A stretch of DNA of 64,000 bases from Actinorugispora endophytica (lineage in GTDB: Bacteria; Actinomycetota; Actinomycetes; Streptosporangiales; Streptosporangiaceae): the NCBI RefSeq assembly GCF_004363075.1, contig NZ_SNYN01000005.1, positions 187,696 through 251,695 on the forward strand, read 5' to 3'. The position numbers were made by a program, and so were the translations under genes. Positions 25,256-38,163 of this stretch are shown piece after piece (position 1 is the stretch's first letter; every line of letters starts with the position of its first letter). The notes under the pieces are model-generated. The model saw only the letters and a list, made by a program, of their open reading frames with translations. It was not told the origin of the DNA and did no database searches.

Positions 25256-25480
25256 GCCGCCGGATCCGACGGCGCCCGCGGTTCCTTCGTCCTCCGGGAA
25301 AGCGGTGAGTCTGTGGCCAGGCCTTCGGTGAGCGTCGTCCGCCTCCTCGGGGAGGGGCACCGCTCGGCCCGGTGACCGTACCGGTCGCCAATCCGATCCG
25401 GCCCCTCGCGGAGGCGGCGGGCGGCGCGACACGTCTGTCCCGTGTTCTCGCCCGACCTTTCCCGCAAGGAGCAACCCACC

Positions 25481-25870
25481 GTGTCACGACGACGCGACGA
25501 CCGTTCCCACTCCCGTCCGCGCGCCCGCCAGGGCGCCGAGTCGTTCCGCTGCCTGCACTGCCGCCTCGACGTGTCCATGAGCGCGCCGGGCACCGCCCAC
25601 CGCAACCACTGCCCGAACTGCCTGCACAGCAAGCACGTGGACGACCGCGTCCCGGGCGACCGGGCGTCGGACTGCCACTCCCGCATGGAGCCCATCTCCA
25701 TCGCGGTGCGCGGCGACGGCGAATGGGTGATCATCCACCGCTGCACCGGCTGCGACGAGCTGAGCGCCAACCGGACCGCGGGCGACGACAACCCGCTGCT
25801 GCTGGTGGGCATGGCCACCCGCCCGCTCGCCAGGCCCCCGTTCCCCTTGGAGCGCCTGGCCATGCTCTGA
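25481..25870 (+). CDS. RNHCP-domain protein
   Basis: The GTG start is preceded by AAGGAG. The sequence HRNHCPNCLHSKHVDD plus CxxC pairs is the RNHCP zinc-ribbon signature. Confidence 0.65.
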   Translation: MSRRRDDRSHSRPRARQGAESFRCLHCRLDVSMSAPGTAHRNHCPNCLHSKHVDDRVPGDRASDCHSRMEPISIAVRGDGEWVIIHRCTGCDELSANRTAGDDNPLLLVGMATRPLARPPFPLERLAML

Positions 25871-25948: not shown

Positions 25949-28900
25949 CTACTCCTTGAAGCCCCGGGCCGCCCGGGTGATGGCGGTCTCGACCGCTCCG
26001 ACGCGGTCGGCGAGGAGGCCCACCGCGCCCACGGCGCGGGACAGGGGGTCGTCGTCCGCGCCGCCCAGCGCCCGGGCGCGGAGGAAGGCGGCCTTCACCT
26101 CCGCCCAGCGGGCCCGCTGCTCCTCGGTCATGCGGCCGCGCAGCTCCGCCAGCTTCAGCAGGTTGGCCTCCGCGCCCGAGGTGAGGGTCTGCGCCTCGCC
26201 CCGGTAGTGGTCGTCGATCACCGCCTCCAGCTCGGCGTCGTTCATCACCGGGACGATGCGCTCGGCCAGCTTGTTCATGTTCCGGTAGGAGCCCTGCAGT
26301 CGGAACGGCGGCTCCGTCCGCGAGGCGTCCGACTGCGCCGCCGACGCGATGTAGGCGCGGTTGTTGGCCAGCACCACCTCCTGGACCCGCAGCAGCTTGC
26401 GCAGCACCGACAGGATCTGGTCCAGCTCCACCGACGAGTACGGGTGCGCGAGCCGGTCGGGCCGCACGCCCTCGTCGCCGCGCGCCATGCGCACCAGGAG
26501 CCGCACGTCCCCGCGTTCGCGGGTGGACAGCGGGGCCAGCACCGGGTTGGAGGTCAGCGCGTTCTCGACGTAGCTCAGCGCGAACAGCTCCTCCCGTCCG
26601 CTCAGCACGTCGCCCAGGTTCCACACGTCGGCGCGGTTGGCGAGCATGTCCGGGACCCGGAACCGCTTGCCCTCCTCGGTGTACGGGTTGCCGGCCATGC
26701 ACACCGCGAACCGCTTGCCGCGCAGGTCGTAGGTCCGCGTGCGGCCCTCCCACACGCCCTCCATCCGGCGCTGGCCGTCGCACAGCGAGATGAACTTCTG
26801 CAGCAGCTCCGGAGACGTGTGCTGGATGTCGTCCAGGTACAGAAGCACGTTGTTCCCGGCCTCCAGGGCGAACGAGATCTTCTCGACCTCCTGGCGCGCG
26901 GTCGCGTCGGGCGCCTCCGCCGGGTCCACCGAGGTCACCGCGTGCCCCAGCGACGGGCCGTTCACCTTCACGAACACCAGGCCCAGGCGGCTCGCCACGT
27001 ACTCCATCAGCGTGGTCTTGCCGTAGCCGGGCGGGGAGACGAGCAGCAGCAGCCCCATCTGGTCGGTGCGCTTGGCGTCGCCCGCCGCCCCCAGCTGCTT
27101 GGCGAGGTTGTCGCCGATCAACGGCAGGTACACCTCGTCGAGCAGCTGGTTGCGCACGAACGAGCTCATCACCGTGGGCCGGTACTCGTCCAGCCGCAGC
27201 CGCGCGCGCTCGGCGGCCACCAGTTCGTTGCGCCGCCGCTGGTAGGCGCGGTACGCGGGGACGCGCTCCGCGCGGAAGAGCCGGGTACGCTCCAGGGTCT
27301 CGTCCAGGCGCAGCTCCAGGCGCCGCCCGCGCACGCGCGGGTGCGCCCCGAGCAGCCCCTCGACCACCGTCGACAGCGGGCCGTCGCACTCGTACCGCTC
27401 CAGGTCCGGGGCCAGTTCGAGCGCGACCGCCTCGGGCAGGTCCGCGTCCTCGCCGGGGCGCTCCGCAGAGGCCAGGTACGCCCCCAGCCACGCCGCCACC
27501 AGCTGGTGCCGCGCCGCCAGGTCGGGCCCCAGCGCCGCGAGGTCGGCGTCGAGCTCCCCGCGCGCGGCCACGCCCAGGCTCCGGCGGAACCGCTCCACGA
27601 GCGAGCGGGCGCCGGAGCCCGCCGCGAACCCGGCGGGACCGGTCCCCGAGGCGAGCTCCTCGAACAGGTACTCGCCCGCCTGGGAGGTGCCGTCGGCGTA
27701 GGCGGCGGTGAGCCCCGCCCCCTCCAGGAACACCGCGACGGCCGCGCCCAGCTCGGCGGACAGCTCGCCGACCGCGCCGCCGCGCCCGAAGCCGAACACC
27801 GAGCGGGCCCGCGCCAGCGAGCGCGCCCGCGTGGCCCAGGACCGCTTCGCCGCGTCCCGCGCGCCGAACGCCCAGAACAGCTGCGCCGCCGCGCGGGCGG
27901 CGCGCGGGTAGCGCAGCAGCCCCGCCCCGCCGTGCAGCCGCAGCAGCGCACCCAGGACGAGGGCCGCGTCGTGGTCGTGGACGCCGCGCTCGTACCCCTC
28001 GTCGTAGCGGGACTCGGCGGCCCCGCGCACCACGGCCAGCAGCGCGTCGGGGTCCTCGGCGGCCTCGCGCAGCGCCGCCGCGGTGGTCCCGCCCTCACCC
28101 GCCTCGGCGTCGGCCAGGACCGCCGCGGCCAGGAACTCCGCCCGGTACACCTGGGGCGTCTCCGACACCAGGTGCTGCTCCCAGAACGGCCGGGTCTCGT
28201 CGAAGCCCTCGGCCGCCACCGGCGAGCGGTAGTCGGTCCCGGTGATGCTGAACGCCATCCGCCCGTCGTGCGGCACCAGCGTCAGGTCGAGCGGCTGGGT
28301 GTTCACCGCGAACCGGTGCGGCCCCAGCCGGACCGACTCGCCGCCGTCGGTGAACAGGTCGAGGCGGTCGCGCAGCGCCCGGCCGGCCTCCTGGCGGGCC
28401 GACTTGACCCGCCCCTCGACCTCCTCGGCGCGCACCTGGTCGCCGAGCGCGCGCAGCTCGTCGGCGGTGGAGCGGAGCCTGGCCACCATGGGGTCCGAGG
28501 CGAAGTAGGTGTTCACCTCGTCGACGGAGCCCAGCGACGCCGCCCGGCGGCGCACGCTGCCCAGGACGCGCTCGGCGGACTCGGCGAGCCGGTCCGCGCG
28601 GCGGACGCGCTCGTCCAGCAGGGCCTGCTTACGCCCGCTGAACGCCTCGTAGACGTCCTCGCGCTTGGCCTCCAGCTCGTCCAGGAAGTCGTCGAACTCC
28701 CCGAAGCGCGACTCCAGGTTCTCCACCTGGAGCATCAACCGCCCCAGCTGCTCGTCGCACGCCTCGGGGGTGTCGGCCATCGCGATCGCGCCGGTCACCG
28801 CCTGGCCCAGCAGCGCGAACTCCGCCGCGAACGCCGCCCGCCCCTCGGCGGCCAGCAGCTCCCGGCGCCGCGCGGCCAGGGTGGCGCGGGCCCGGTTGAC

Positions 28901-30919
28901 CGAGCCCAGCACCTCGCCGATGCGCTCCAGGATGCGCGTGCGCACGGTCGCGTCGGCGATGTCGAGCGAGCCGACGACCTCGGTGACGGTCTCCAGGCCC
29001 TCGGTCTGCTCGGCTAGCCGTGCCTCGACGGGCGCGGCGTCCGCGACGGTGGCGATGGCCTCGGCCCCGGCGATCAGCGCGGCCACGTCGGCGTGGTAGC
29101 CGGTGAAGGCGTCGTCCCCGCTCAGGAACTCCACCGCCCGCCGCCCGGCCGAGGCCAGGTCGTCCACGAGCGTCCCGGCGAGCGCGTCCAGCCGGCCGGT
29201 GTCGACGTAGCGCAGCTCGCGCAGCGTCTCCAGGCGCCCCTGGGACCGGCGCAGCTCGGCCAGGCGGCGCACCCACTCGTCCGCCGAGGCGGGCGCCTCG
29301 CCGCGTACCCGGCGCACCAGCGCGGTGACGTCGCTCCCGGCCTCGTCCAGGGCCGCGGCCGCCCGCGCGGTCAACGACTGGACCTTCTCGAACTCGTCCA
29401 GCACCTGACCGGCGGTGGCCCGCACCCGGGTGAGCGGTTCGCGCAGGTCGCCCAGGTCGGCGTCGCCCAGCCAGTGGTACTGGTCCAGGGTCCGCCGGCA
29501 GGCCGCGATCAGCCCTTCGAACACGCGGGCGGAGGGCGCCATCTCGTCGACCATCCGGGCCACCGACAGCGCGTCGGAGACGCCCCGGACCAGGTCGGCG
29601 TTGCCGACCCGCTCCAGCGGGCCGGTGCCCACGGGCTGGCGGGCGGCGTAGGCGTCGGACTGGAACGGGGTCCGCCACACCTGCATGGGGTGGACCCGGG
29701 TGGGCTCCTCCGACAGGGCGCGGAACACCACCATGGTCCCGTCGTCGAAGACCGAGTACCCGTGGCAGGTGATCGGGTTGGCGACCTCCTTGCGGATCAC
29801 GTTGTACGGCAGCAGCAGGCTGCGGCCGTCGGCCCGGGAGTGGAAGACGTACAGCACGTCCTCGCCGTTGGGCGAGCGGACCAGCTGCTGGAACTCCAGG
29901 TCCGCCACGTCGGTGTCGAAGGTCCTGGCCACCCCGGTGGACAGGTAGAAGCCGCCGGGGAAGATCAGGCCCTGGTCCTCGGGCAGCCGCTGGCAGGCCT
30001 GCCCGATGCCGTCCAGGCGGACCACGTCCCGGGTGCGCGTGTTGAACACCAGGTACCGGTGCTCGGTCTCCTTGTAGGGCAGGACGCGCAGCAGGATGAG
30101 CGGGCCCACCCGGGCGTGCGCGACGCTCGCGTCGGCCAGGCTCTGCAGCGGCTCGGCCACCGGCTCGCTGTAGACGCCCTCGCCGGTCTCGGTGTTGTTC
30201 TCGACCTTGACGGTGAGGTCGCCGCCGACCGTCTCCACGAACAGCTCGTCGGCGATGGAGATGTGCGGGTGGCGGCCGACGACGTGGTCCTCGCGGGTGG
30301 CCTCCACCCAGGCGAGGTCCTGCCGCGGCGGGAAGACGTGGTCCCGCTCGCCCTTGTTGTCCAGGTAGGACAGGCCCCCGTCGGGGCCCACGCGCCAGCG
30401 CAGCACCCGGATGTCGGAGGTGGCGGGCCCGGTCTGGAAGACCGCCAGCAGCCGGCCCTCGACGCGGCGCAGCTGGAGCAGCCGGGTGTCGCGGAAGTAC
30501 CGGTACAGCTCGGCGAAGTCCTTGCGGAACCGCTCGTCGTCCAGCAGCTCGGGCAGTTCGCCCGGACCGGCGTCGGCGAAGGCGAAGGCGTCGTCCTCGG
30601 ACGTGAAGCGGTGCAGCGAGAGGACGTCCTCGACGCGCGTCTCGGACCTGAGGCCGATGAAGACGTTGTAGCCGAACAGCATGAGGCCGCCCGCGGGCAC
30701 GATGTCGCGCGGCACGCAGTTGTGCGCGGTGCGGATCCGCTCGGTGCCCAGCAGCGTCAGTTCGGTGCCGCCGAAGACGCCCAGGCGCGCGGCGTTCAGC
30801 GCCTCGGCGCGCCGGGCCAGCTCGGCGGCCTGCTCGCCCAGCCGGGCCCGGAGCACCTCGAAGGTGCCCATGTCGAGCCCGGCCCGGTCGTCGTCCGGCG
30901 TCGTGACGAGGTCGGTCAC
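25949..30919 (-). CDS. Giant (1656 aa) flotillin-associated protein: an unassigned roughly 1150-aa N-terminal region plus a C-terminal MoxR/dynein-like AAA+ ATPase module
   Basis: Single uninterrupted frame. The GTG start lies 7 nt after the flotillin stop. Walker A (LLLVSPPGYGKTTLMEYV) and Walker B (VLLYLDDIQH) both lie in the C-terminal 450 aa, and I recognise no domain in the first roughly 1150 aa. Confidence 0.8.
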   Translation of the reverse strand: MTDLVTTPDDDRAGLDMGTFEVLRARLGEQAAELARRAEALNAARLGVFGGTELTLLGTERIRTAHNCVPRDIVPAGGLMLFGYNVFIGLRSETRVEDVLSLHRFTSEDDAFAFADAGPGELPELLDDERFRKDFAELYRYFRDTRLLQLRRVEGRLLAVFQTGPATSDIRVLRWRVGPDGGLSYLDNKGERDHVFPPRQDLAWVEATREDHVVGRHPHISIADELFVETVGGDLTVKVENNTETGEGVYSEPVAEPLQSLADASVAHARVGPLILLRVLPYKETEHRYLVFNTRTRDVVRLDGIGQACQRLPEDQGLIFPGGFYLSTGVARTFDTDVADLEFQQLVRSPNGEDVLYVFHSRADGRSLLLPYNVIRKEVANPITCHGYSVFDDGTMVVFRALSEEPTRVHPMQVWRTPFQSDAYAARQPVGTGPLERVGNADLVRGVSDALSVARMVDEMAPSARVFEGLIAACRRTLDQYHWLGDADLGDLREPLTRVRATAGQVLDEFEKVQSLTARAAAALDEAGSDVTALVRRVRGEAPASADEWVRRLAELRRSQGRLETLRELRYVDTGRLDALAGTLVDDLASAGRRAVEFLSGDDAFTGYHADVAALIAGAEAIATVADAAPVEARLAEQTEGLETVTEVVGSLDIADATVRTRILERIGEVLGSVNRARATLAARRRELLAAEGRAAFAAEFALLGQAVTGAIAMADTPEACDEQLGRLMLQVENLESRFGEFDDFLDELEAKREDVYEAFSGRKQALLDERVRRADRLAESAERVLGSVRRRAASLGSVDEVNTYFASDPMVARLRSTADELRALGDQVRAEEVEGRVKSARQEAGRALRDRLDLFTDGGESVRLGPHRFAVNTQPLDLTLVPHDGRMAFSITGTDYRSPVAAEGFDETRPFWEQHLVSETPQVYRAEFLAAAVLADAEAGEGGTTAAALREAAEDPDALLAVVRGAAESRYDEGYERGVHDHDAALVLGALLRLHGGAGLLRYPRAARAAAQLFWAFGARDAAKRSWATRARSLARARSVFGFGRGGAVGELSAELGAAVAVFLEGAGLTAAYADGTSQAGEYLFEELASGTGPAGFAAGSGARSLVERFRRSLGVAARGELDADLAALGPDLAARHQLVAAWLGAYLASAERPGEDADLPEAVALELAPDLERYECDGPLSTVVEGLLGAHPRVRGRRLELRLDETLERTRLFRAERVPAYRAYQRRRNELVAAERARLRLDEYRPTVMSSFVRNQLLDEVYLPLIGDNLAKQLGAAGDAKRTDQMGLLLLVSPPGYGKTTLMEYVASRLGLVFVKVNGPSLGHAVTSVDPAEAPDATARQEVEKISFALEAGNNVLLYLDDIQHTSPELLQKFISLCDGQRRMEGVWEGRTRTYDLRGKRFAVCMAGNPYTEEGKRFRVPDMLANRADVWNLGDVLSGREELFALSYVENALTSNPVLAPLSTRERGDVRLLVRMARGDEGVRPDRLAHPYSSVELDQILSVLRKLLRVQEVVLANNRAYIASAAQSDASRTEPPFRLQGSYRNMNKLAERIVPVMNDAELEAVIDDHYRGEAQTLTSGAEANLLKLAELRGRMTEEQRARWAEVKAAFLRARALGGADDDPLSRAVGAVGLLADRVGAVETAITRAARGFKE

Positions 30920-30926
30920 CGGCGCG

Positions 30927-33074
30927 TCACCGCTTCAGCGCGTGCGCGTCGAGTTCGGACAGCGGCTTGTCGGCCACGCCCAGCCGCCGCGCGGACCGCA
31001 GCAGGTCGGAGAGGCCGGCGGAGTCGGGGCCGCCCGAGTCGATCAGCTTGAGCAGCAGGGCCGACAGGGTGAGGTTCCTGACGTCCTCGGAGTCCACCGA
31101 CCCCAGCAGCCGGGACAGGTCCCGGGTGAAGTCCTGGGAGCCGTCCAGCCACGCCCCGGCCAGGGACTGGGCGGTCGCGGAGTTCTCCATGAAGCCGTCC
31201 ACGGCCTTGCCGACGCTGATCGAGTTGACGATGCGGTCGAAGAACATCCCGTCGCCGCCGACGATGTCGATGTCGGCGCTCTCCAGGCCCTTGCCCAGCA
31301 CGCTGGCCTGGGCCTCGGCGACCCGGCGCTGGACGTCGATCCCGGCCAGGCGGACCTCCTTCTCGGCCTCCAGGCGCAGGCGGTACTCCTCGTGGTCGCG
31401 GGTGGCGTCGTCGAGCGCGGCCATCGCCTCGGCCTTGTCGGTGATGCCCTCGGCCTCGGCCTTGAGCTTCTCGCGGATCTGCGTGGCCTCCGACATCGCC
31501 TTCTCGCGGTCGGCCAGGGCCTGGGCGAGCCCGACCTTCTCGACCTTCTCGGCCTGCGCCTGGGCCTGCTCGCGGTCGGCGACGGCCTGGGCGAGCCCGA
31601 GCTTCTCGATCTCCTCGGCCTGGGCGAGCGCCTTCTCGCGCCGGACGACCGCCTCGGCGCGGCCGGTCTTCTCCAGGGCCGCGGCGTCGCGCTCGCGGAC
31701 CTGGACCTCGGCCAGCCCGTCGGCGGCGGCCTCGGCCTGGCGGCCCTCGGCGAGGCGGATGCTCGCGGCGGCGTCCAGCTCGGCGGCCCGCTGGCGCGCC
31801 TCGGCCAGGGTCAGCTGCTCGCGGGCGGAGTGCTCGGCGGCCTGCGCGGCGGCCTCGGCGGCCTTGATGTCCTTGACCAGCTTCTCCTGCGCCTCGCCCT
31901 CGGCGAGGATGACCGCGGACTGGCGGTGGCGCTCGGCCTCCTCCAGCACGCGCAGCTTCTTGATGTTCTCCTCCTGCTCGGCGACGGTCCTGTCGACGGC
32001 GATGCGCTCGCGGATGGCCTCGGCGATCTCGCGCTTCTCGGCCTCCAGCTCCTTGTCCTTGGCGATGCGCGACAGGTCGGTCTCGCGCTCGCGGGCGATG
32101 ACCTCCAGCAGGCGGTCCTTCTCGATGCGCTCGGTCTCGATCGCGATGACCCGCTCGCGGTTCTTCTCGGCCACCGCGATCTCGCGGTCCCGGTTCTCGC
32201 GCTGGACGCCGAGCTCCTGGTCGGCGCGGATGCGCGCGGCCTGGGACTTGAGCAGCTCGTCGGCGCGCACGATCTCGGTCTCGGCCTCGGCGCGGGCGCG
32301 CAGCGACTCCACCTCGCGCTTCTGCCTGGTCTCGGCCTCCTCGCGGCGGCGCTCCAGCTCCAGGATGGTCTCGCGCGCCTCGACGTTCTGGCGCTCGAGC
32401 TCCTTCTCCTCGTTGCGGCGGTGCTCGTTGGTGCTGATGCTCTGCAGCGCGGTCAGCTCGGTGATCTTGCGGATGCCCTGGGCGTCCAGGATGTTCGCCG
32501 AGTCGAGCTGGGTCATCGGGGTCTGCTCGAGGTAGTCGATGGCCGCGTCCTCGAGGCTGTAGCCGTTGAGGTCGGTGCCGATGACGTGGATGATCCGGTC
32601 GCGGAACTCGTCGCGCTTTGTGTAGAGGTCCTCGAAGTCGAGGTGCTTGCCGACGGTCTTGAGCGCCTCGGAGAACTTCGCGTTGAACAGCTCCTGGAGG
32701 GTGGACTGGTCGCTGGCGCGCTCGGTGCCGATGGCCTGGGCGACCTTGATGACGTCCTCGGTGGTCTTGTTGACCCGGACGAAGAAGGTGATGCGGATGT
32801 CCGCGCGGATGTTGTCCCGGCAGATCAGGCCCTCCTTGCCGGTCCGGGCGATGTCGATCGTCTTCACCGAGATGTCCATGACCTCGGCCTTGTGCAGGAC
32901 CGGCAGCACGACGGCGCCGGTGAAGGTGACGTCCACCTTCGTGACCTTGGAGACGATCAGGGCCTTGCCCTGCTCGACCTTGCGGAACAGGCGGCTGATG
33001 ACGAACAGCAGCCCCAGGAGGACGAGGAGGAGGACGGCGATGAGCACGCCGACCCCTGCGGTGATTGTTTCCAT
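30927..33074 (-). CDS. Flotillin (SPFH/band-7) family protein with a very long coiled-coil
   Basis: An N-terminal TM segment and SPFH domain (KALIVSKVTKVDVTFTGAVVLPVLHKAEVMDISVKTIDI) are followed by an E/A/R-rich coiled-coil of more than 300 aa, typical of YqiK/FloT. Confidence 0.9.
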   Translation of the reverse strand: METITAGVGVLIAVLLLVLLGLLFVISRLFRKVEQGKALIVSKVTKVDVTFTGAVVLPVLHKAEVMDISVKTIDIARTGKEGLICRDNIRADIRITFFVRVNKTTEDVIKVAQAIGTERASDQSTLQELFNAKFSEALKTVGKHLDFEDLYTKRDEFRDRIIHVIGTDLNGYSLEDAAIDYLEQTPMTQLDSANILDAQGIRKITELTALQSISTNEHRRNEEKELERQNVEARETILELERRREEAETRQKREVESLRARAEAETEIVRADELLKSQAARIRADQELGVQRENRDREIAVAEKNRERVIAIETERIEKDRLLEVIARERETDLSRIAKDKELEAEKREIAEAIRERIAVDRTVAEQEENIKKLRVLEEAERHRQSAVILAEGEAQEKLVKDIKAAEAAAQAAEHSAREQLTLAEARQRAAELDAAASIRLAEGRQAEAAADGLAEVQVRERDAAALEKTGRAEAVVRREKALAQAEEIEKLGLAQAVADREQAQAQAEKVEKVGLAQALADREKAMSEATQIREKLKAEAEGITDKAEAMAALDDATRDHEEYRLRLEAEKEVRLAGIDVQRRVAEAQASVLGKGLESADIDIVGGDGMFFDRIVNSISVGKAVDGFMENSATAQSLAGAWLDGSQDFTRDLSRLLGSVDSEDVRNLTLSALLLKLIDSGGPDSAGLSDLLRSARRLGVADKPLSELDAHALKR

Positions 33075-33129
33075 GGGGGGTCCTAGCGATCGGTGGGCGA
33101 ACTGGCGATCGGTGCGGGTGCGGGCCGGG

Positions 33130-33778
33130 TCAGGAGACGGGGCGGTCCGGGTCGAGTTCGGCGTCGTAGGCCGTGACCCAGAAGAACGCCCCGGCGTCGT
33201 CGTACTCGAAGATCAGGGCGGTGCTGCCCGAGGTGAGGGGGTCGTCGCCGTTCTGGCGGACCTGGACGAGCGCGGTGGAGCCGTCGGCGGAGGACACCTC
33301 GGCCTGGCCGAAGTCCTTGTCCACCCGCCCGGTCCTGATCACGCAGACCCGGCCGACGAAGTCGCGCTGGGAGGGCTCGCGGCCGTCGGGGGCGAAGCGG
33401 CGCCACAGCACGGCGAGGAGGCTGGTCGCGGCCCAGGCGCAGACCAGCGCGATCGCGAGCACGACGACGCCCAGCGCGACGACCATCGGGGAGGAGAGGT
33501 CGGCGCCGTCCAGGAGCGCGGCGCCGGTGAGGCTGGTGAACCAGGAGACGGCGATCACGAGCGAGAGTGACACGGTGACGGGTATCCCTCCGAGGCCGAT
33601 GCCCGACATGAACCCGGCGAAGCCGCCCGCTTCGGCGCCTTCGTCGACGTCGGCGTCGAGCAGGTCGAGGCCGAGGGCGCCCAGGACCACCATGACCCAG
33701 TAGCCGATGACGACGATTAAGGCGAAGCTGAACAGGGCCGTGGGGAAACCGAGCGCTGCGGACAGGAATTCACTCATA
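33130..33778 (-). CDS. NfeD-like membrane protein (YqiJ/YuaF type), the flotillin partner
   Basis: N-terminal TM helices are followed by a C-terminal OB-fold region (GRVCVIRTGRVDKDFGQAEVSSADGSTALVQVR). The stop lies 55 nt upstream of the flotillin start. Confidence 0.75.
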
Positions 33779-34122
33779 CCGGTCTGTTGAGCCCCTCCAC
33801 GCGGGAGCCGGATCCGGGAAGCGGCCGCCGGTTCCGGAACCGTCCGCAGGGCGGAATCCACCGAGCGGCCCTTCCGGCCGCAACGCCCTGTCCGCGACCG
33901 GTCACCTGCCCGGTCGGGACGCCCGGTCTCCCGGACGTGCCGACCGGACCGGCAGCGCCCGCATCCGTCCTCCGCGATCGTCGCGGGTGACGTTCATGCG
34001 CTTCTAGGACGTGCCGGGGTGAAATCCGGTTCCCACCTTTTGCGGTGTTTTCTCCGCAGTGGACGCGGGCCGCGGCCGGGCCGGGGGGCGCCGCCCGGGG
34101 TCCGGCCCGTCGCCGGTGCGGG

Positions 34123-37026
34123 TCAGACGCGCCAGAGGGCCCCGCCGTCGGTGCCGTACAGCACGGCGTCGCCGTCGTCCTGGACGACCAGGCGGGTTCC
34201 CGGGTTGCCCGAGGTCCCGCTGTTCCAGAGCCGGTGGCCGTCGGCGTCGTAGAGGACGAGGTCGCCGTCCTCCTCCAGGTGCAGGACCCCGACGGAGGCG
34301 CCGTGGGTGCCCGTCGCCCACAGGGCGCGCCCGCGCGGCCCCCGGTAGAGGACGAGGTTGCCGTCGTGCTGGTAGACGAGGTGGTACTCGCCCGAGGCCG
34401 AGTCCAGCGCCCCCGGGGTCATGACCTGGCCGCCCAGCATCGTGTCGCCCCGGGCGGGCGGCCCCTCGGGCAGGGGGCGCCGTACGACCTCGGTGTCGGT
34501 GGCCCACAGCTCCTCGTCGTCCTCGCCGTACAGGACGACGTTGCCGTCGCCCCGGACGACCAGGCGCGCGCCGGGGTTCTCCTCGGTTCCGCTGTTCCAG
34601 ACCAGGTCGCCGTCGGCGTCGTAGAGGACGAGGTCGCCGTCCTCCTCCAGGTGCAGGACCCCGACGGACGAGCCGTAGGTGTCCGACGCCCACAGGGCGC
34701 TGCTGGAGCCGGTCCGGTAGAGGACGAGGTTGCCGTCGTGCTGGTGGGCGAGGTGGTACTCGCCGGAGGCGGAGGTGAGGGTGCCGCGCCGGAGGGTCTG
34801 GCCGGGCAGCATCGTGTCGCCCTGGGCGGGCGGCCCCTCGGGCAGCCTGCTCGCCTGCGCCGTGCCGGTGTGCCACAGCCGCCGGCCCGCCTCGTCGAGG
34901 AGGACGAGGTCGCCGTCGTCCCGGACGACCAGGCGCGCGCCGGGGTTGCCGGAGGTGCCGCTGCGCCAGACGGGGGCGCCGCCGCTGTTGTACAGGACGA
35001 GGTCGCCGTCCTCCCCCAGGTGCAGGACCCCGACGGAGGCGCCGTACGTGTCCGTCGCCCACAGGGCGTGGCCGTGGGAGCCCCGGTAGAGGACGAGGTT
35101 GCCGTCGTGCTGGTGGGCGAGGTGGTACTCGCCCGAGGCGGAGGAGAGGGACCCGCGCCGGAGGACCTGGCCGGGCAGGACCGTGTCGCCCTGGGCGGGC
35201 GGCCCCTCGGGGAGGGGGCGCCGGACGGTGTCGGTGTGCCACAGCCGCTCGCCCGCCTCGTCGAGGAGGACGAGGTCGCCGTCGTCCCGGACGACCAGGC
35301 GCGCGCCGGGGCTGCCGGAGGTGCCGCTGCGCCAGACGGGGGCGCCGCCGGCGTCGTGGAGGACGAGCTCGCCGTCCTCGTGCAGCGCCAGGGCCCCGAT
35401 CGAGGCGCCCTGGGTGTCGGACGCCCACATGGCGTTGCCGCGGGGGCCCTGGTAGAGGACGAGGTTGCCGTCGTACTGGTAGACGAGGTGGTACTCGCCC
35501 GAGGCCGAGGAGAGCGACCGCGGCCCCAGGACCTGGCCGGGCAGCATCGTGTCGCCCTGCGCGGGCGGCCACTCCGACAGCGGGTACCGGGCGGTGCGTG
35601 TGGCCCACAGCGGCCTGCCGTCGGCGTCGTGCAGCGCGAGGTCGCCGTCGTCCCGGACGACCAGGCGCGCGCCCGGAAGCCCCGAGGTGCCGGTGCGCCA
35701 GACGGGGGCGCCGTCGGCGTCGTGGAGGACGACGTCGCCGTCCTCGTGCAGGGCGAGGGCCCCGACCGAGGCCCGGCGGGTGCCGGACGTCCACAGGGCG
35801 TGGTCGTCGCTGTCCCGGTAGAGGGCGAGGTCGCCGTCGTTCTGGTGGACGAGCGTGTACTCGCCGGAGGCGGAGGTGAGGGACTGGCGTCGGAGGGTCT
35901 GGCCGCGCAGCAGCGCGTCGCCCCGCGCGTGCGGGCCCTCGGGGAGGGGGCGCCGGACGGTGCCGGTGGCCCACAGCCGCTCGCCCGCCCCGTCGTACAG
36001 CACGACGTCGCCGTCGTCCCGGACGACCAGGCGCGCGCCCGGGCTGCCCGCGGTCCCGGTGCTCCAGACCTCGTCCCCCCGGGCGTTGTGGAGCACCAGG
36101 TCGCCGTCCTCGCGCAGGGCGAGGCGCAACGTCCCCCCGCGGTGCCTCCCGGTCTCCCACAGGGACCGGCCGTCGTGGTCGCGGTACAGCACGACGTTGC
36201 CGTCGTTCTGGTGGACGAGCGTGTACTCGCCGGAGGCGGAGGTGAGGGACTGGCGCCGGAGGGTCTGGCCGGGCAGCATCGTGTCGCCCCGGGCGTGCGT
36301 GCCGGCTCCGGCGGGGGGCGGCGGGAGCGGGGCGGCGGCGGGGGAGTCGGCGACGCCGAGCTCCGCGGGGGTCTCCCACTCCAGGTGCTCGCGCTCCTCG
36401 TCGGCGGGGTCGCCCTTGGCGGGGACCGGGAGGTAGCCGCTGTCCCCGGTGACCGGTTCGCCCCGGTCCCGGTATCGCCACAGTCCCGCCGGCCTTCCGT
36501 CGTGCATGGCGTCCGCGACGTCGGCGAGCAGGTGGGCGAGGCTCGGCCACTCGGCGGGCTCGTCGTTGGCGTCGTCGTGGCGCCAGCTCATGACGCAGCC
36601 CTGCCGGGGGCCCTCGCGCAGGTCGACGAACATGTGGTCGCCCGACCCGTCGGCGGCGATCGGGACGAAGTACTCGGAGTAGTGCGGGGGAGGGGTCCCG
36701 GCCTCGCCGTCGCCGTCGCCGTCGTGTGCCGGGTCCGCGAACCCGCTGTCGGCTCCTCTGGACTCCAGGGCCGCACCCCGGATGGAGGCGACCTCGCCGA
36801 GCCCGATGGAGGCGTGGTCGGGAGGGAACACCGTGAGGTCGTCGAAGCGCGGCATCCGCCACCACGCCACCAGGTCGGGGGGAAGGGGGAACCCGAGGGC
36901 CTCCTCTTCGAGGCGGCGGACCTCCTCGTCGGTCGGCGGCTCCCGCCGCAGCTCCGGACTCCCGGGCACGTTCGCGTCCAGCCAGTCGAGGACGCGCTTC
37001 CATGACTCTTCCACTGAGGGGTACAT
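34123..37026 (-). CDS. SUKH (Smi1/Knr4) domain protein fused to six tandem bulb-type (monocot mannose-binding-type) lectin domains
   Basis: The N-terminal 200 aa carry WKRVLDWLDANVP...LGFPLPPDLVAWW...EYFVPIAADGSGDHMFVDL, a SUKH-1/SMI1_KNR4 signature with no signal peptide. A Pro-rich linker follows, then six repeats of about 123 aa each beginning GDTMLPGQ..L....SL.SASGEY.L..Q.DGN.VLY (the QxDxNxVxY motif) with degenerate second and third subdomain motifs (HEDGDLVLH, VVRDDGDLVLY). The DNA shows a period of about 369 bp. Confidence 0.75.
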   Translation of the reverse strand: MYPSVEESWKRVLDWLDANVPGSPELRREPPTDEEVRRLEEEALGFPLPPDLVAWWRMPRFDDLTVFPPDHASIGLGEVASIRGAALESRGADSGFADPAHDGDGDGEAGTPPPHYSEYFVPIAADGSGDHMFVDLREGPRQGCVMSWRHDDANDEPAEWPSLAHLLADVADAMHDGRPAGLWRYRDRGEPVTGDSGYLPVPAKGDPADEEREHLEWETPAELGVADSPAAAPLPPPPAGAGTHARGDTMLPGQTLRRQSLTSASGEYTLVHQNDGNVVLYRDHDGRSLWETGRHRGGTLRLALREDGDLVLHNARGDEVWSTGTAGSPGARLVVRDDGDVVLYDGAGERLWATGTVRRPLPEGPHARGDALLRGQTLRRQSLTSASGEYTLVHQNDGDLALYRDSDDHALWTSGTRRASVGALALHEDGDVVLHDADGAPVWRTGTSGLPGARLVVRDDGDLALHDADGRPLWATRTARYPLSEWPPAQGDTMLPGQVLGPRSLSSASGEYHLVYQYDGNLVLYQGPRGNAMWASDTQGASIGALALHEDGELVLHDAGGAPVWRSGTSGSPGARLVVRDDGDLVLLDEAGERLWHTDTVRRPLPEGPPAQGDTVLPGQVLRRGSLSSASGEYHLAHQHDGNLVLYRGSHGHALWATDTYGASVGVLHLGEDGDLVLYNSGGAPVWRSGTSGNPGARLVVRDDGDLVLLDEAGRRLWHTGTAQASRLPEGPPAQGDTMLPGQTLRRGTLTSASGEYHLAHQHDGNLVLYRTGSSSALWASDTYGSSVGVLHLEEDGDLVLYDADGDLVWNSGTEENPGARLVVRGDGNVVLYGEDDEELWATDTEVVRRPLPEGPPARGDTMLGGQVMTPGALDSASGEYHLVYQHDGNLVLYRGPRGRALWATGTHGASVGVLHLEEDGDLVLYDADGHRLWNSGTSGNPGTRLVVQDDGDAVLYGTDGGALWRV

Positions 37027-37070
37027 GCGCGGCACTCTGCCAGTGAACGGTGACAGGAAGGCGAACCTCC

Positions 37071-37132
37071 GCCGATCTTGACCTTTTCGGGGTCTCGACT
37101 GCGGCTGAGACCCCGAAAAGGTCAAGATCGGC
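37071..37132. repeat. Palindromic intergenic repeat (family P), copy 1; contains the stop codon of the DUF559 gene
   Basis: GCCGATCTTGACCTTTTCGGGGTCTC-gactgcggct-GAGACCCCGAAAAGGTCAAGATCGGC. Confidence 0.7.
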
Positions 37133-38060
37133 GAGGAAGTGAGAGCTCGCGCCGGAGGTAGGCGAGGATCGCGGTGTTCGCGGGGTGGAGGTCGGCCTGG
37201 GTGCAGACGTAGAGGTCCCAGCCGAGGTCCTTGACGGCGTTGCGGCGTGCCGCGTCCTCGCGCCACCTTTCGCGGTGCACGACCCCGTCGTACTCGACGG
37301 CGATCCGCTGTTCCCGGTAGCCGAGGTCGAGGCGGGCCACGTGTCGGCCGGACGGGGCGAACAGGTTGATCTGGGCCTCGGGGCGGGGAAGCCCCGCCCG
37401 TACGAGCTTCATCCGCAGCCGGGACTCGCCGGGGGACTCGCTCGCGGGTTCGGCCTGCTCCGCGACGAGGACGGCGCGTCGGATCCCGCGCCACCCGGCG
37501 AAGCGTTCGTGTCGCGCGTGGTCGGCCAGCTCCTCGGGTGTGAACAACCCGAGGTGGGTGAGCGCGTCCACCGCGACGACCGCTTCCGTGTCGTTCCCGC
37601 CCGGACCGGTCCTGCGCGCGAGGTCGAGTCCGGTGCGCAGGGGGGTGGTGGCGAGCAACCCCGCGAACCGCGTCACGTCTTCGGGGAGCAGCTCGGCGCG
37701 CCGGATCGACAGGCCGCGCCGCGGTCTCATCGGAGCACCTCGCGGCAGGGTGATCTCCAGGGGGTCGTTCCACCGGCGGATGTCCGCCCCGTACAGCCAG
37801 GCCGCGGTGCTCCCGCTGAGGACGGCCCCCTCCGGCAGGACGAGCGCGAGCGCGTGGACGCGCTGCTCGATGGTGTCGGGCAGTCCGGCGAACACGTAGA
37901 CGTCGCGCAGCAGCCGACGCCAGCAGCCGCTCCGCAGCTGCTCCGCGGTCAACGTCCCCTTCCGGCACGCTTCGGTGCCGCGGAACGGGCCTGTTCTGAG
38001 GGGTTCGGGAATCTCCGGGAGGGTTGGCATGTGTCCAGGGTGCGGCCGACCGCCGTCCAC
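37122..38060 (-). CDS. DUF559 (Vsr-like endonuclease domain) protein with an AbiEi-like N-terminal region
   Basis: The C-terminus reads EQRIAVEYDGVVHRERWREDAARRNAVKDLGWDLYVCT, typical of actinobacterial DUF559 proteins. Start is GTG at 38060 or ATG at 38030. Confidence 0.7.
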   Translation of the reverse strand: MDGGRPHPGHMPTLPEIPEPLRTGPFRGTEACRKGTLTAEQLRSGCWRRLLRDVYVFAGLPDTIEQRVHALALVLPEGAVLSGSTAAWLYGADIRRWNDPLEITLPRGAPMRPRRGLSIRRAELLPEDVTRFAGLLATTPLRTGLDLARRTGPGGNDTEAVVAVDALTHLGLFTPEELADHARHERFAGWRGIRRAVLVAEQAEPASESPGESRLRMKLVRAGLPRPEAQINLFAPSGRHVARLDLGYREQRIAVEYDGVVHRERWREDAARRNAVKDLGWDLYVCTQADLHPANTAILAYLRRELSLPRRS

Positions 38061-38080
38061 CGGGGATGCCTGTCCACAAC

Positions 38081-38152
38081 CCCTTGTTGATCTTGACCTT
38101 TTCGGGGTCTCAACCGCGGTTGAGACCCCGAAAAGGTCAAGATCAACAAGGG
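38081..38152. repeat. Palindromic intergenic repeat (family P), copy 2; a perfect 72-bp palindrome
   Basis: CCCTTGTTGATCTTGACCTTTTCGGGGTCTCAACCGCGGTTGAGACCCCGAAAAGGTCAAGATCAACAAGGG. Confidence 0.75.
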
Positions 38153-38163
38153 AGGGGTGCGGG

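Follow-up and report, generated by a model that had tools for sequence, protein, structure and literature searches.

In the E. coli yqiJ-yqiK and B. subtilis yuaF-floT (NfeD2-FloT) loci, a short NfeD-like protein with three transmembrane (TM) segments is encoded together with a TM-anchored flotillin. We know of no giant ATPase at either locus. Elsewhere SPFH scaffolds repeatedly pair with AAA+ machines, as in the HflK/C-FtsH and prohibitin-m-AAA protease systems. This study concerns a 64,000-nucleotide stretch of Actinorugispora endophytica DNA (contig NZ_SNYN01000005.1, positions 187,696 to 251,695; hereafter the window), in which genes like those of the yqiJ-yqiK and yuaF-floT loci, in the same order, are followed by the gene for a giant AAA+ ATPase. 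The flotillin and the ATPase are the invariant core of this operon, and the small YqiJ/YuaF-type protein that usually precedes them is dispensable. The three genes are as follows.

33130..33777, minus strand: small membrane protein of the YqiJ/YuaF type (215 aa)
30927..33074, minus strand: long flotillin/SPFH protein (715 aa)
25949..30919, minus strand: giant AAA+ ATPase (1656 aa from a GTG at 30919; NCBI chose the ATG at 30871, 16 codons later, which gives 1640 aa)

The sequence-only reading of this DNA could relate the giant protein to no described flotillin partner. The operon had in fact already been found by comparative genomics, often with but also without a CesT/Tir-PspA pair, by Ravi et al. 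(mSystems 2024, preprint 2020; PMC11237479). It has four elements in that study, among them CesT/Tir-PspA and a 3-TM YqiJ/YuaF protein, and the Dokdonia entry of their Table S3 lists CesT_Tir, YqiJ-YuaF, Band-7/flotillin, then a β-propeller+coiled-coil+AAA protein. The authors read the operon as a PspA-linked sub-membrane assembly system. The window has the same gene order and the same domain architectures as the type neighborhood (Dokdonia donghaensis ANH61663.1), but lacks the CesT/Tir-PspA dyad of the extended form and has no PLD gene. A Chitinophagaceae locus (L092) has exactly the published arrangement, CesT_Tir, PspA, YqiJ-like protein, flotillin and ATPase, and its ATPase belongs to PF12458, so the window family and the published family are the same. 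The gene association was therefore already known in silico and is not a discovery of this study. PMC11237479 names neither a Pfam family nor a clade for the ATPase, offers no structure or quantified synteny, and reports its presence only "in some cases", whereas the pairing is near-obligate here. An ATPase partner is not mentioned in the SPFH survey of Hinderhofer 2009. In the literature searched we found no experimental study of any operon member and no mention of DUF3686, PF12458 or the pairing of a flotillin with a "DNA repair ATPase". The present analysis adds a quantified reciprocal pairing, the dispensability of the YqiJ-like gene, the fold architecture of the ATPase and its invariant D-D Walker B motif, along with further linkages to PspA and LiaF and the exclusion of a neighboring lectin gene.

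Related loci were collected with a profile-guided scan that used one genome per species (80 loci) and from other look-ups (11 loci), which gave 91 loci. An iterated profile search for the flotillin and the small protein covered the first 86 loci; five loci were added later. The flotillin gene was directly upstream of the ATPase gene on the same strand in 82/86 loci, and 3 others are contigs cut off no more than 400 bp from the beginning of the ATPase gene. The triad was also present in the later loci, from pQBR103, Deinococcus, Clostridium intestinale, Haliovirga and a member of the Chitinophagaceae; the upstream genes of L090-L092 were assigned by size and position, since none has a Pfam match. 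Altogether the two genes are adjacent in 87/88 loci with usable upstream sequence (82/83 scanned plus the 5 added), and adjacency persists at ∼27–32% ATPase identity. In 33/82 loci there is a start codon between -8 and +19 nt from the flotillin stop. The sequence-only reading had proposed gene-neighborhood conservation among actinobacterial orthologs as a check, and this synteny held. It also extends well past the actinobacteria: the loci that show it come from Actinomycetota, Myxococcota, Pseudomonadota, Bacillota, Fusobacteriota, Bacteroidota and Deinococcota.

The association was also followed from the flotillin side, in a collection of 72,556 plasmid/replicon records. Thirteen records matched the flotillin with at least 80% coverage, and these are exactly the 13 records that have the ATPase. 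The remaining 299 records matched over the SPFH domain only. The pairing of the long flotillin with the ATPase is close to obligate, and in the plasmid/replicon collection the association runs both ways.

Homologs of the small membrane protein were identified upstream of the flotillin in 68/86 loci by the profile scan. Each of the five later loci has a gene of fitting size and position, and the homologs from L087 and L088 can be aligned with the window protein. The gene is missing from ∼13 Streptomyces loci, which leaves the flotillin and the ATPase as the core. In the Streptomyces loci that are missing it, a divergent gene of ∼374 aa abuts the flotillin gene directly (at ∼4000-5500 in L053 and L056). 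Judged by sequence it encodes a putative PucR-like regulator, a candidate for local regulation.

The small protein was called NfeD-like in the sequence-only reading. A hydropathy scan found three hydrophobic stretches, or ∼3 TM segments, and the C-terminal part is a soluble domain. Pfam gave no match for the window protein, and NfeD (PF01957), a model of a C-terminal OB-fold domain that binds partners, stayed unmatched with the threshold relaxed to E = 5. For the Deinococcus homolog the Pfam NfeD score is 16.8 bits, below the cut-off of 29.1. A PDB search with the single sequence found nothing, while a 12-sequence profile gave B. subtilis YuaF/NfeD2 (2K14) as its top match at E = 0.073, with the whole soluble domain aligned. 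With YuaF as the best PDB match and the Deinococcus score below threshold, the label is reasonable, though not proven by sequence.

The flotillin call of the sequence-only reading is borne out by a Pfam Band_7 match (36.4 bits, cut-off 23.6, aa 32-175) and one TM segment within aa 1-34. The SPFH domain is followed by ∼400 residues rich in Glu, Ala and Arg and then by a conserved C-terminal region. Judged by its composition the Glu/Ala/Arg-rich region is a putative helical coiled coil, and with it the protein fits the SPFH/Band-7 flotillin layout of N-terminal anchor, SPFH domain and long coil. At 715 aa it is longer than the flotillins of the yqiJ-yqiK and yuaF-floT loci, and flotillins of the YqiK type match it over the SPFH domain only (25–48% coverage). 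It scored 18.9 bits against the NCBIfam FloT equivalog NF058507, which has a cut-off of 700, and it represents a distinct flotillin subfamily. A single-sequence PDB search with the flotillin produced no match.

The ATPase belongs to a large family: more than 5,540 homologs were found, and 463 clusters at 50% identity have E < 1e-30. Members also occur in Acidobacteriota and Planctomycetota, which brings the spread to at least nine phyla. Across actinomycete families the ATPase is 60–82% identical over 1,640 aa. Pfam identified DUF3686 (PF12458) at aa 33-482 with 714 bits (cut-off 25), spanning model positions 1-448 of 448, and DUF7902 at aa 603-687, together with AAA and AAA_5. PDB sequence searches returned weak P-loop matches only, and a 46-sequence full-length profile returned none at E < 0.001. 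No TM segment was predicted, and the protein appears to be soluble.

Two AlphaFold models were generated from a 46-sequence alignment that reaches down to 26% identity; their pLDDT values were 88.8 and 91.3. The modelled chain begins with a helix (aa 3-33), a β-rich region (aa 39-400) and long helical bundles (aa 418-839), which are followed by a small β unit, a helical region, one AAA+ module and a helical C-terminus. The fold matches are to propellers, spectrin repeats and AAA+ modules of the MoxR/dynein type. For the propeller region Foldseek returned WD40 (DCAF1), paraoxonase and prolyl-oligopeptidase structures with E ∼1e-5 and probability 1.0, at low TM-scores of 0.3–0.4. These fold matches agree with the MoxR/dynein-like AAA+ module of the sequence-only reading. 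Its view that about 1150 N-terminal residues were unassigned has to be narrowed, since DUF3686 and DUF7902 cover part of them. The predicted domains and motifs are as follows.

29474..30823, minus strand: DUF3686 region (PF12458), divergent and β-propeller-like, preceded by an N-terminal helix (AlphaFold pLDDT 88.8, β-strands at aa 39-400)
28355..29620, minus strand: spectrin-like helical-bundle repeats, including DUF7902 at 28859..29113
26432..27148, minus strand: AAA+ module of the MoxR/dynein type
27011..27037, minus strand: Walker A, SPPGYGKTT
26819..26836, minus strand: Walker B, LDDIQH
26675..26692, minus strand: sensor-1, GNPYTE
26627..26653, minus strand: Arg-containing motif, PDMLANRAD

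The AAA+ core is closest to the MoxR/dynein/midasin group and has a β-hairpin before sensor 1. In 46 diverse sequences the Walker A, sensor-1 and Arg motifs are invariant, and so is the Walker B motif LDDIQH. This motif places an Asp at the position usually held by the catalytic Glu, so the canonical hhhhDE of MoxR proteins is not found. The family departs from MoxR proteins in other ways as well. CbbQ, NorQ and RavA are proteins of ∼270–500 aa with a D-E Walker B and a VWA/MIDAS partner, whereas the window ATPase has 1,640 aa, an invariant D-D Walker B and a flotillin partner.

HflK/C-FtsH and prohibitin-m-AAA protease resemble the proposed window assembly in that an SPFH scaffold works together with a membrane-associated AAA+ ATPase. 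FtsH and the m-AAA proteases are membrane-anchored AAA proteases of the classical clade. By contrast, the window ATPase is predicted to be soluble, has no protease domain, and is placed structurally in the MoxR/dynein group with a propeller and spectrin-like repeats. PspA/Vipp1/ESCRT-III with a Vps4-type AAA+ protein offers a functional analogy, in which a polymer on the membrane serves as scaffold and has an ATPase of its own, in the setting of envelope stress; in several phyla members of the operon family are directly linked to PspA genes. The parts differ, as the scaffold of the operon is an SPFH protein and its ATPase is not a Vps4-like classical-clade AAA protein with an MIT domain.

In unrelated phyla the operon recurs beside genes of envelope stress, either PspA/CesT or LiaF. 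On pQBR103 a single co-directional array runs YjfI, PspA, rhomboid, YjfK, YjfL, YjfM, YjfC and then the triad. CesT_Tir and PspA genes are immediately upstream of the triad in the Chitinophagaceae locus, and LytTR and LiaF genes are immediately upstream of it in Clostridium intestinale (L090). In another locus (L083) a PspA gene lies 6 kb downstream. This context points to envelope stress and not to DNA.

Taken together, synteny, topology and folds lead us to favor, somewhat above an even chance, an operon of three genes, two of them its core, whose products form a flotillin-based assembly beneath the membrane together with a dedicated partner driven by ATP, serving membrane maintenance under envelope stress. 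The sequence-only reading suggested a machine associated with membrane microdomains, and that is likewise what we infer. The flotillin, aided by the YqiJ-like protein, would oligomerize into a cage or patch on the cytoplasmic side of the membrane, like other SPFH proteins. The ATPase may oligomerize through its AAA+ ring and dock on the flotillin through the propeller and the spectrin-like arms. ATP binding and hydrolysis would then assemble, disassemble or remodel the scaffold or the proteins held there, as part of membrane maintenance under envelope stress and possibly with a PspA encoded elsewhere. MoxR-type ATPases are remodelers of protein complexes.

Several observations weigh against this assembly. 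First, the catalytic Glu is missing from the D-D Walker B, so the module may hydrolyze ATP slowly, or it may work as a nucleotide switch and not as a motor. The usual companion of a MoxR-type ATPase is a VWA protein, and a VWA/MIDAS gene was absent from the operon in all loci whose Pfam-annotated genes were inspected. Next, tblastn with two PspA queries and one YjfI query found no match in either the window or the loci of actinomycetes, a weak test because PspA proteins diverge fast; on this result the window corresponds to the "abbreviated operon" of PMC11237479. One genome, Aureibacter tunicatorum (Bacteroidota, L084, 7253-12830), has the ATPase without an adjacent flotillin and is the only exception to the pairing among the 88 informative loci. 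Finally, our literature search found interaction, localization, expression or phenotype data for no operon member.

A related reading is that the operon encodes a chaperone or quality-control machine, in which the flotillin cage confines membrane-protein clients and the ATPase acts on the clients, by MoxR-like maturation or extraction, and not on the scaffold. The present data do not separate it from the scaffold-directed assembly favored above, and we give it about one chance in four. The structural neighbors of the window ATPase are MoxR-type ATPases, and two proteins of this type, CbbQ and NorQ, act on other protein complexes to mature or activate them. PMC11237479 suggested a chaperone-like role for the band-7 partners, and S. 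aureus FloA-NfeD is reported to stabilize unfolded proteins in microdomains (PMC11222466). Against a client-directed role, there is no VWA/MIDAS adaptor, and no conserved client gene stands beside the operon, because the neighbors differ between loci.

A bolder version of the favored assembly is a megadalton ATP-driven membrane-skeleton machine. Here a MoxR/dynein-like ring would carry six spectrin-like arms whose β-propeller tips grip the flotillin cage, and the machine would mechanically remodel, bud or repair patches of membrane. We consider this rather unlikely in its full form. If it were true, the operon would be a bacterial counterpart of ESCRT-III/Vps4 made from unrelated parts, and bacterial flotillins would have an energy-dependent cycle.

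The operon could instead be an accessory, horizontally moving anti-phage or conflict module at the membrane, with the ATPase as sensor of infection and the flotillin and YqiJ-like proteins as the pair that disturbs the membrane. Megaplasmids and accessory replicons carry it, among them pQBR103 and Deinococcus, Hymenobacter and Streptomyces linear plasmids. It is patchy in Vibrio, where HipA, RNA-ligase/kinase and TelA genes flank the locus; the window and some Micromonospora-type loci have an AbiEi-like gene close by. However, a search of the three proteins against PADLOC-DB 2.0 gave only a 15.3-bit P-loop match of the ATPase to IetA and nothing for the flotillin or the small protein, and the operon proteins contain no nuclease, toxin or other effector domain. 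The ATPase is also highly conserved among actinomycete families (60–82% identity) while the surrounding housekeeping genes vary by locus, as one sees with a cellular function that is inherited vertically. We judge a defense role improbable.

That the ATPase acts on DNA, with the flotillin adjacent by chance or tethering a repair factor to the membrane, is very improbable and weakly refuted: its sole support is the family names ("DNA repair ATPase" at NCBI, "ATPase involved in DNA repair" for Pfam DUF3686) plus weak RuvB_N and RuvB P-loop matches of 19–21 bits, far under cut-offs of 27 to 299, whereas Pfam, NCBIfam and PDB searches detected no DNA-binding, nuclease, SMC or Rad50 domain in the ATPase, its folds are propellers, spectrin repeats and a MoxR/dynein AAA+ module, its invariant neighbors are membrane proteins, and its recurrent context is Psp/Lia and not repair genes. 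The name presumably arose from coiled-coil similarity to COG0419 SbcC. It is probably a misnomer or legacy annotation on thousands of proteins, and nothing in this analysis backs it.

The role of bacterial flotillins is still debated, and here a whole flotillin subfamily has a dedicated, very large and conserved ATPase. The pairing provides a handle on whether some flotillin assemblies cycle by energy, and a link to the Psp/Lia response.

The open reading frames (ORFs) and coordinates of the window agree exactly with the sequence-only reading, which listed four minus-strand genes in the order lectin protein, small protein, flotillin and ATPase with spacers of 345, 55 and 7 nt. The two genes that flank the triad are as follows.

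34123..37026, minus strand: SUKH-lectin protein (967 aa)
25376..25870, plus strand: RNHCP-domain gene (129 bits), convergent with the ATPase gene and immediately downstream of it

Since the RNHCP gene is convergent, the ATPase gene closes the transcription unit. The NCBI protein from Actinorugispora endophytica (P0001) is 100% identical to the ATPase. With the ATG start in place of the GTG, the flotillin-ATPase spacer would be 55 nt. Neither candidate ATPase start is preceded by a clear Shine-Dalgarno sequence; the flotillin ATG is preceded by AGGA at ∼9 nt. GC content at the third codon position is 0.86–0.99 in all four reading frames, and codon-position GC backs each frame. A terminator scan of the minus strand found no terminator-like hairpin in any spacer between the four genes. 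A sigma-70 promoter scan gave no match, as expected for an actinomycete host with 72% GC.

The sequence-only reading left it open whether the lectin gene is part of the unit. None of the 91 related loci has the gene, and the 345-nt gap sets it apart from the small-protein gene, so as an operon member it was rejected; it is an unrelated neighbor. Its product matches SMI1_KNR4 and B_lectin in Pfam and the NCBIfam model for putidacin L1 lectin-like bacteriocins (389 bits). It is an unusual fusion of an N-terminal SMI1_KNR4/SUKH domain to six tandem B_lectin units of ∼122 aa, encoded by DNA repeats of 366–372 nt that are 75–87% identical. It has neither a signal peptide nor a TM segment, and the SUKH part is a weak match to the PADLOC candidate PDC-M40A. 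Two spurious ORFs overlap the gene, 34004-37003 on the minus strand (999 aa) and 34045-37005 on the plus strand (986 aa). Both are rich in Arg, Pro and Gly, an artefact of high GC that could mislead ORF-based gene calling. The ORF at 34004..37003 was rejected as the lectin gene for its wrong, Arg/Pro-rich frame; the lectin frame is that of the ORF at 34123..38079.

Upstream of the lectin gene, at 37122-38060 on the minus strand, is a 312-aa gene with weak AbiEi_1, MTES_1575 and DUF559 endonuclease-like matches. It is bracketed by two copies of a 66-nt element, 89% identical, at 37074-37139 and 38089-38154. The element holds a near-perfect palindrome of ∼56 nt (GATCTTGACCTTTTCGGGGTCTC...GAGACCCCGAAAAGGTCAAGATC) and could be a terminator, a REP/MITE-like element or a recombination site. 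AbiEi-like genes are also found a few kb upstream of the triad, at varying positions, in four Micromonospora/Plantactinospora loci (L001, L011, L027 and L029).

Two other loci have neighbors worth recording. In the Aureibacter locus a PRiA4_ORF3-domain gene is upstream, where the flotillin would be. In Vibrio chagasii (L085, 2000-20800) the triad sits in an apparent accessory island, with RNA ligase, HD/AAA_33 kinase and R2K ATP-grasp genes upstream and HTH-HipA, TelA, NUDIX, CTP-transferase-like, isochorismatase and NAPRTase genes downstream.

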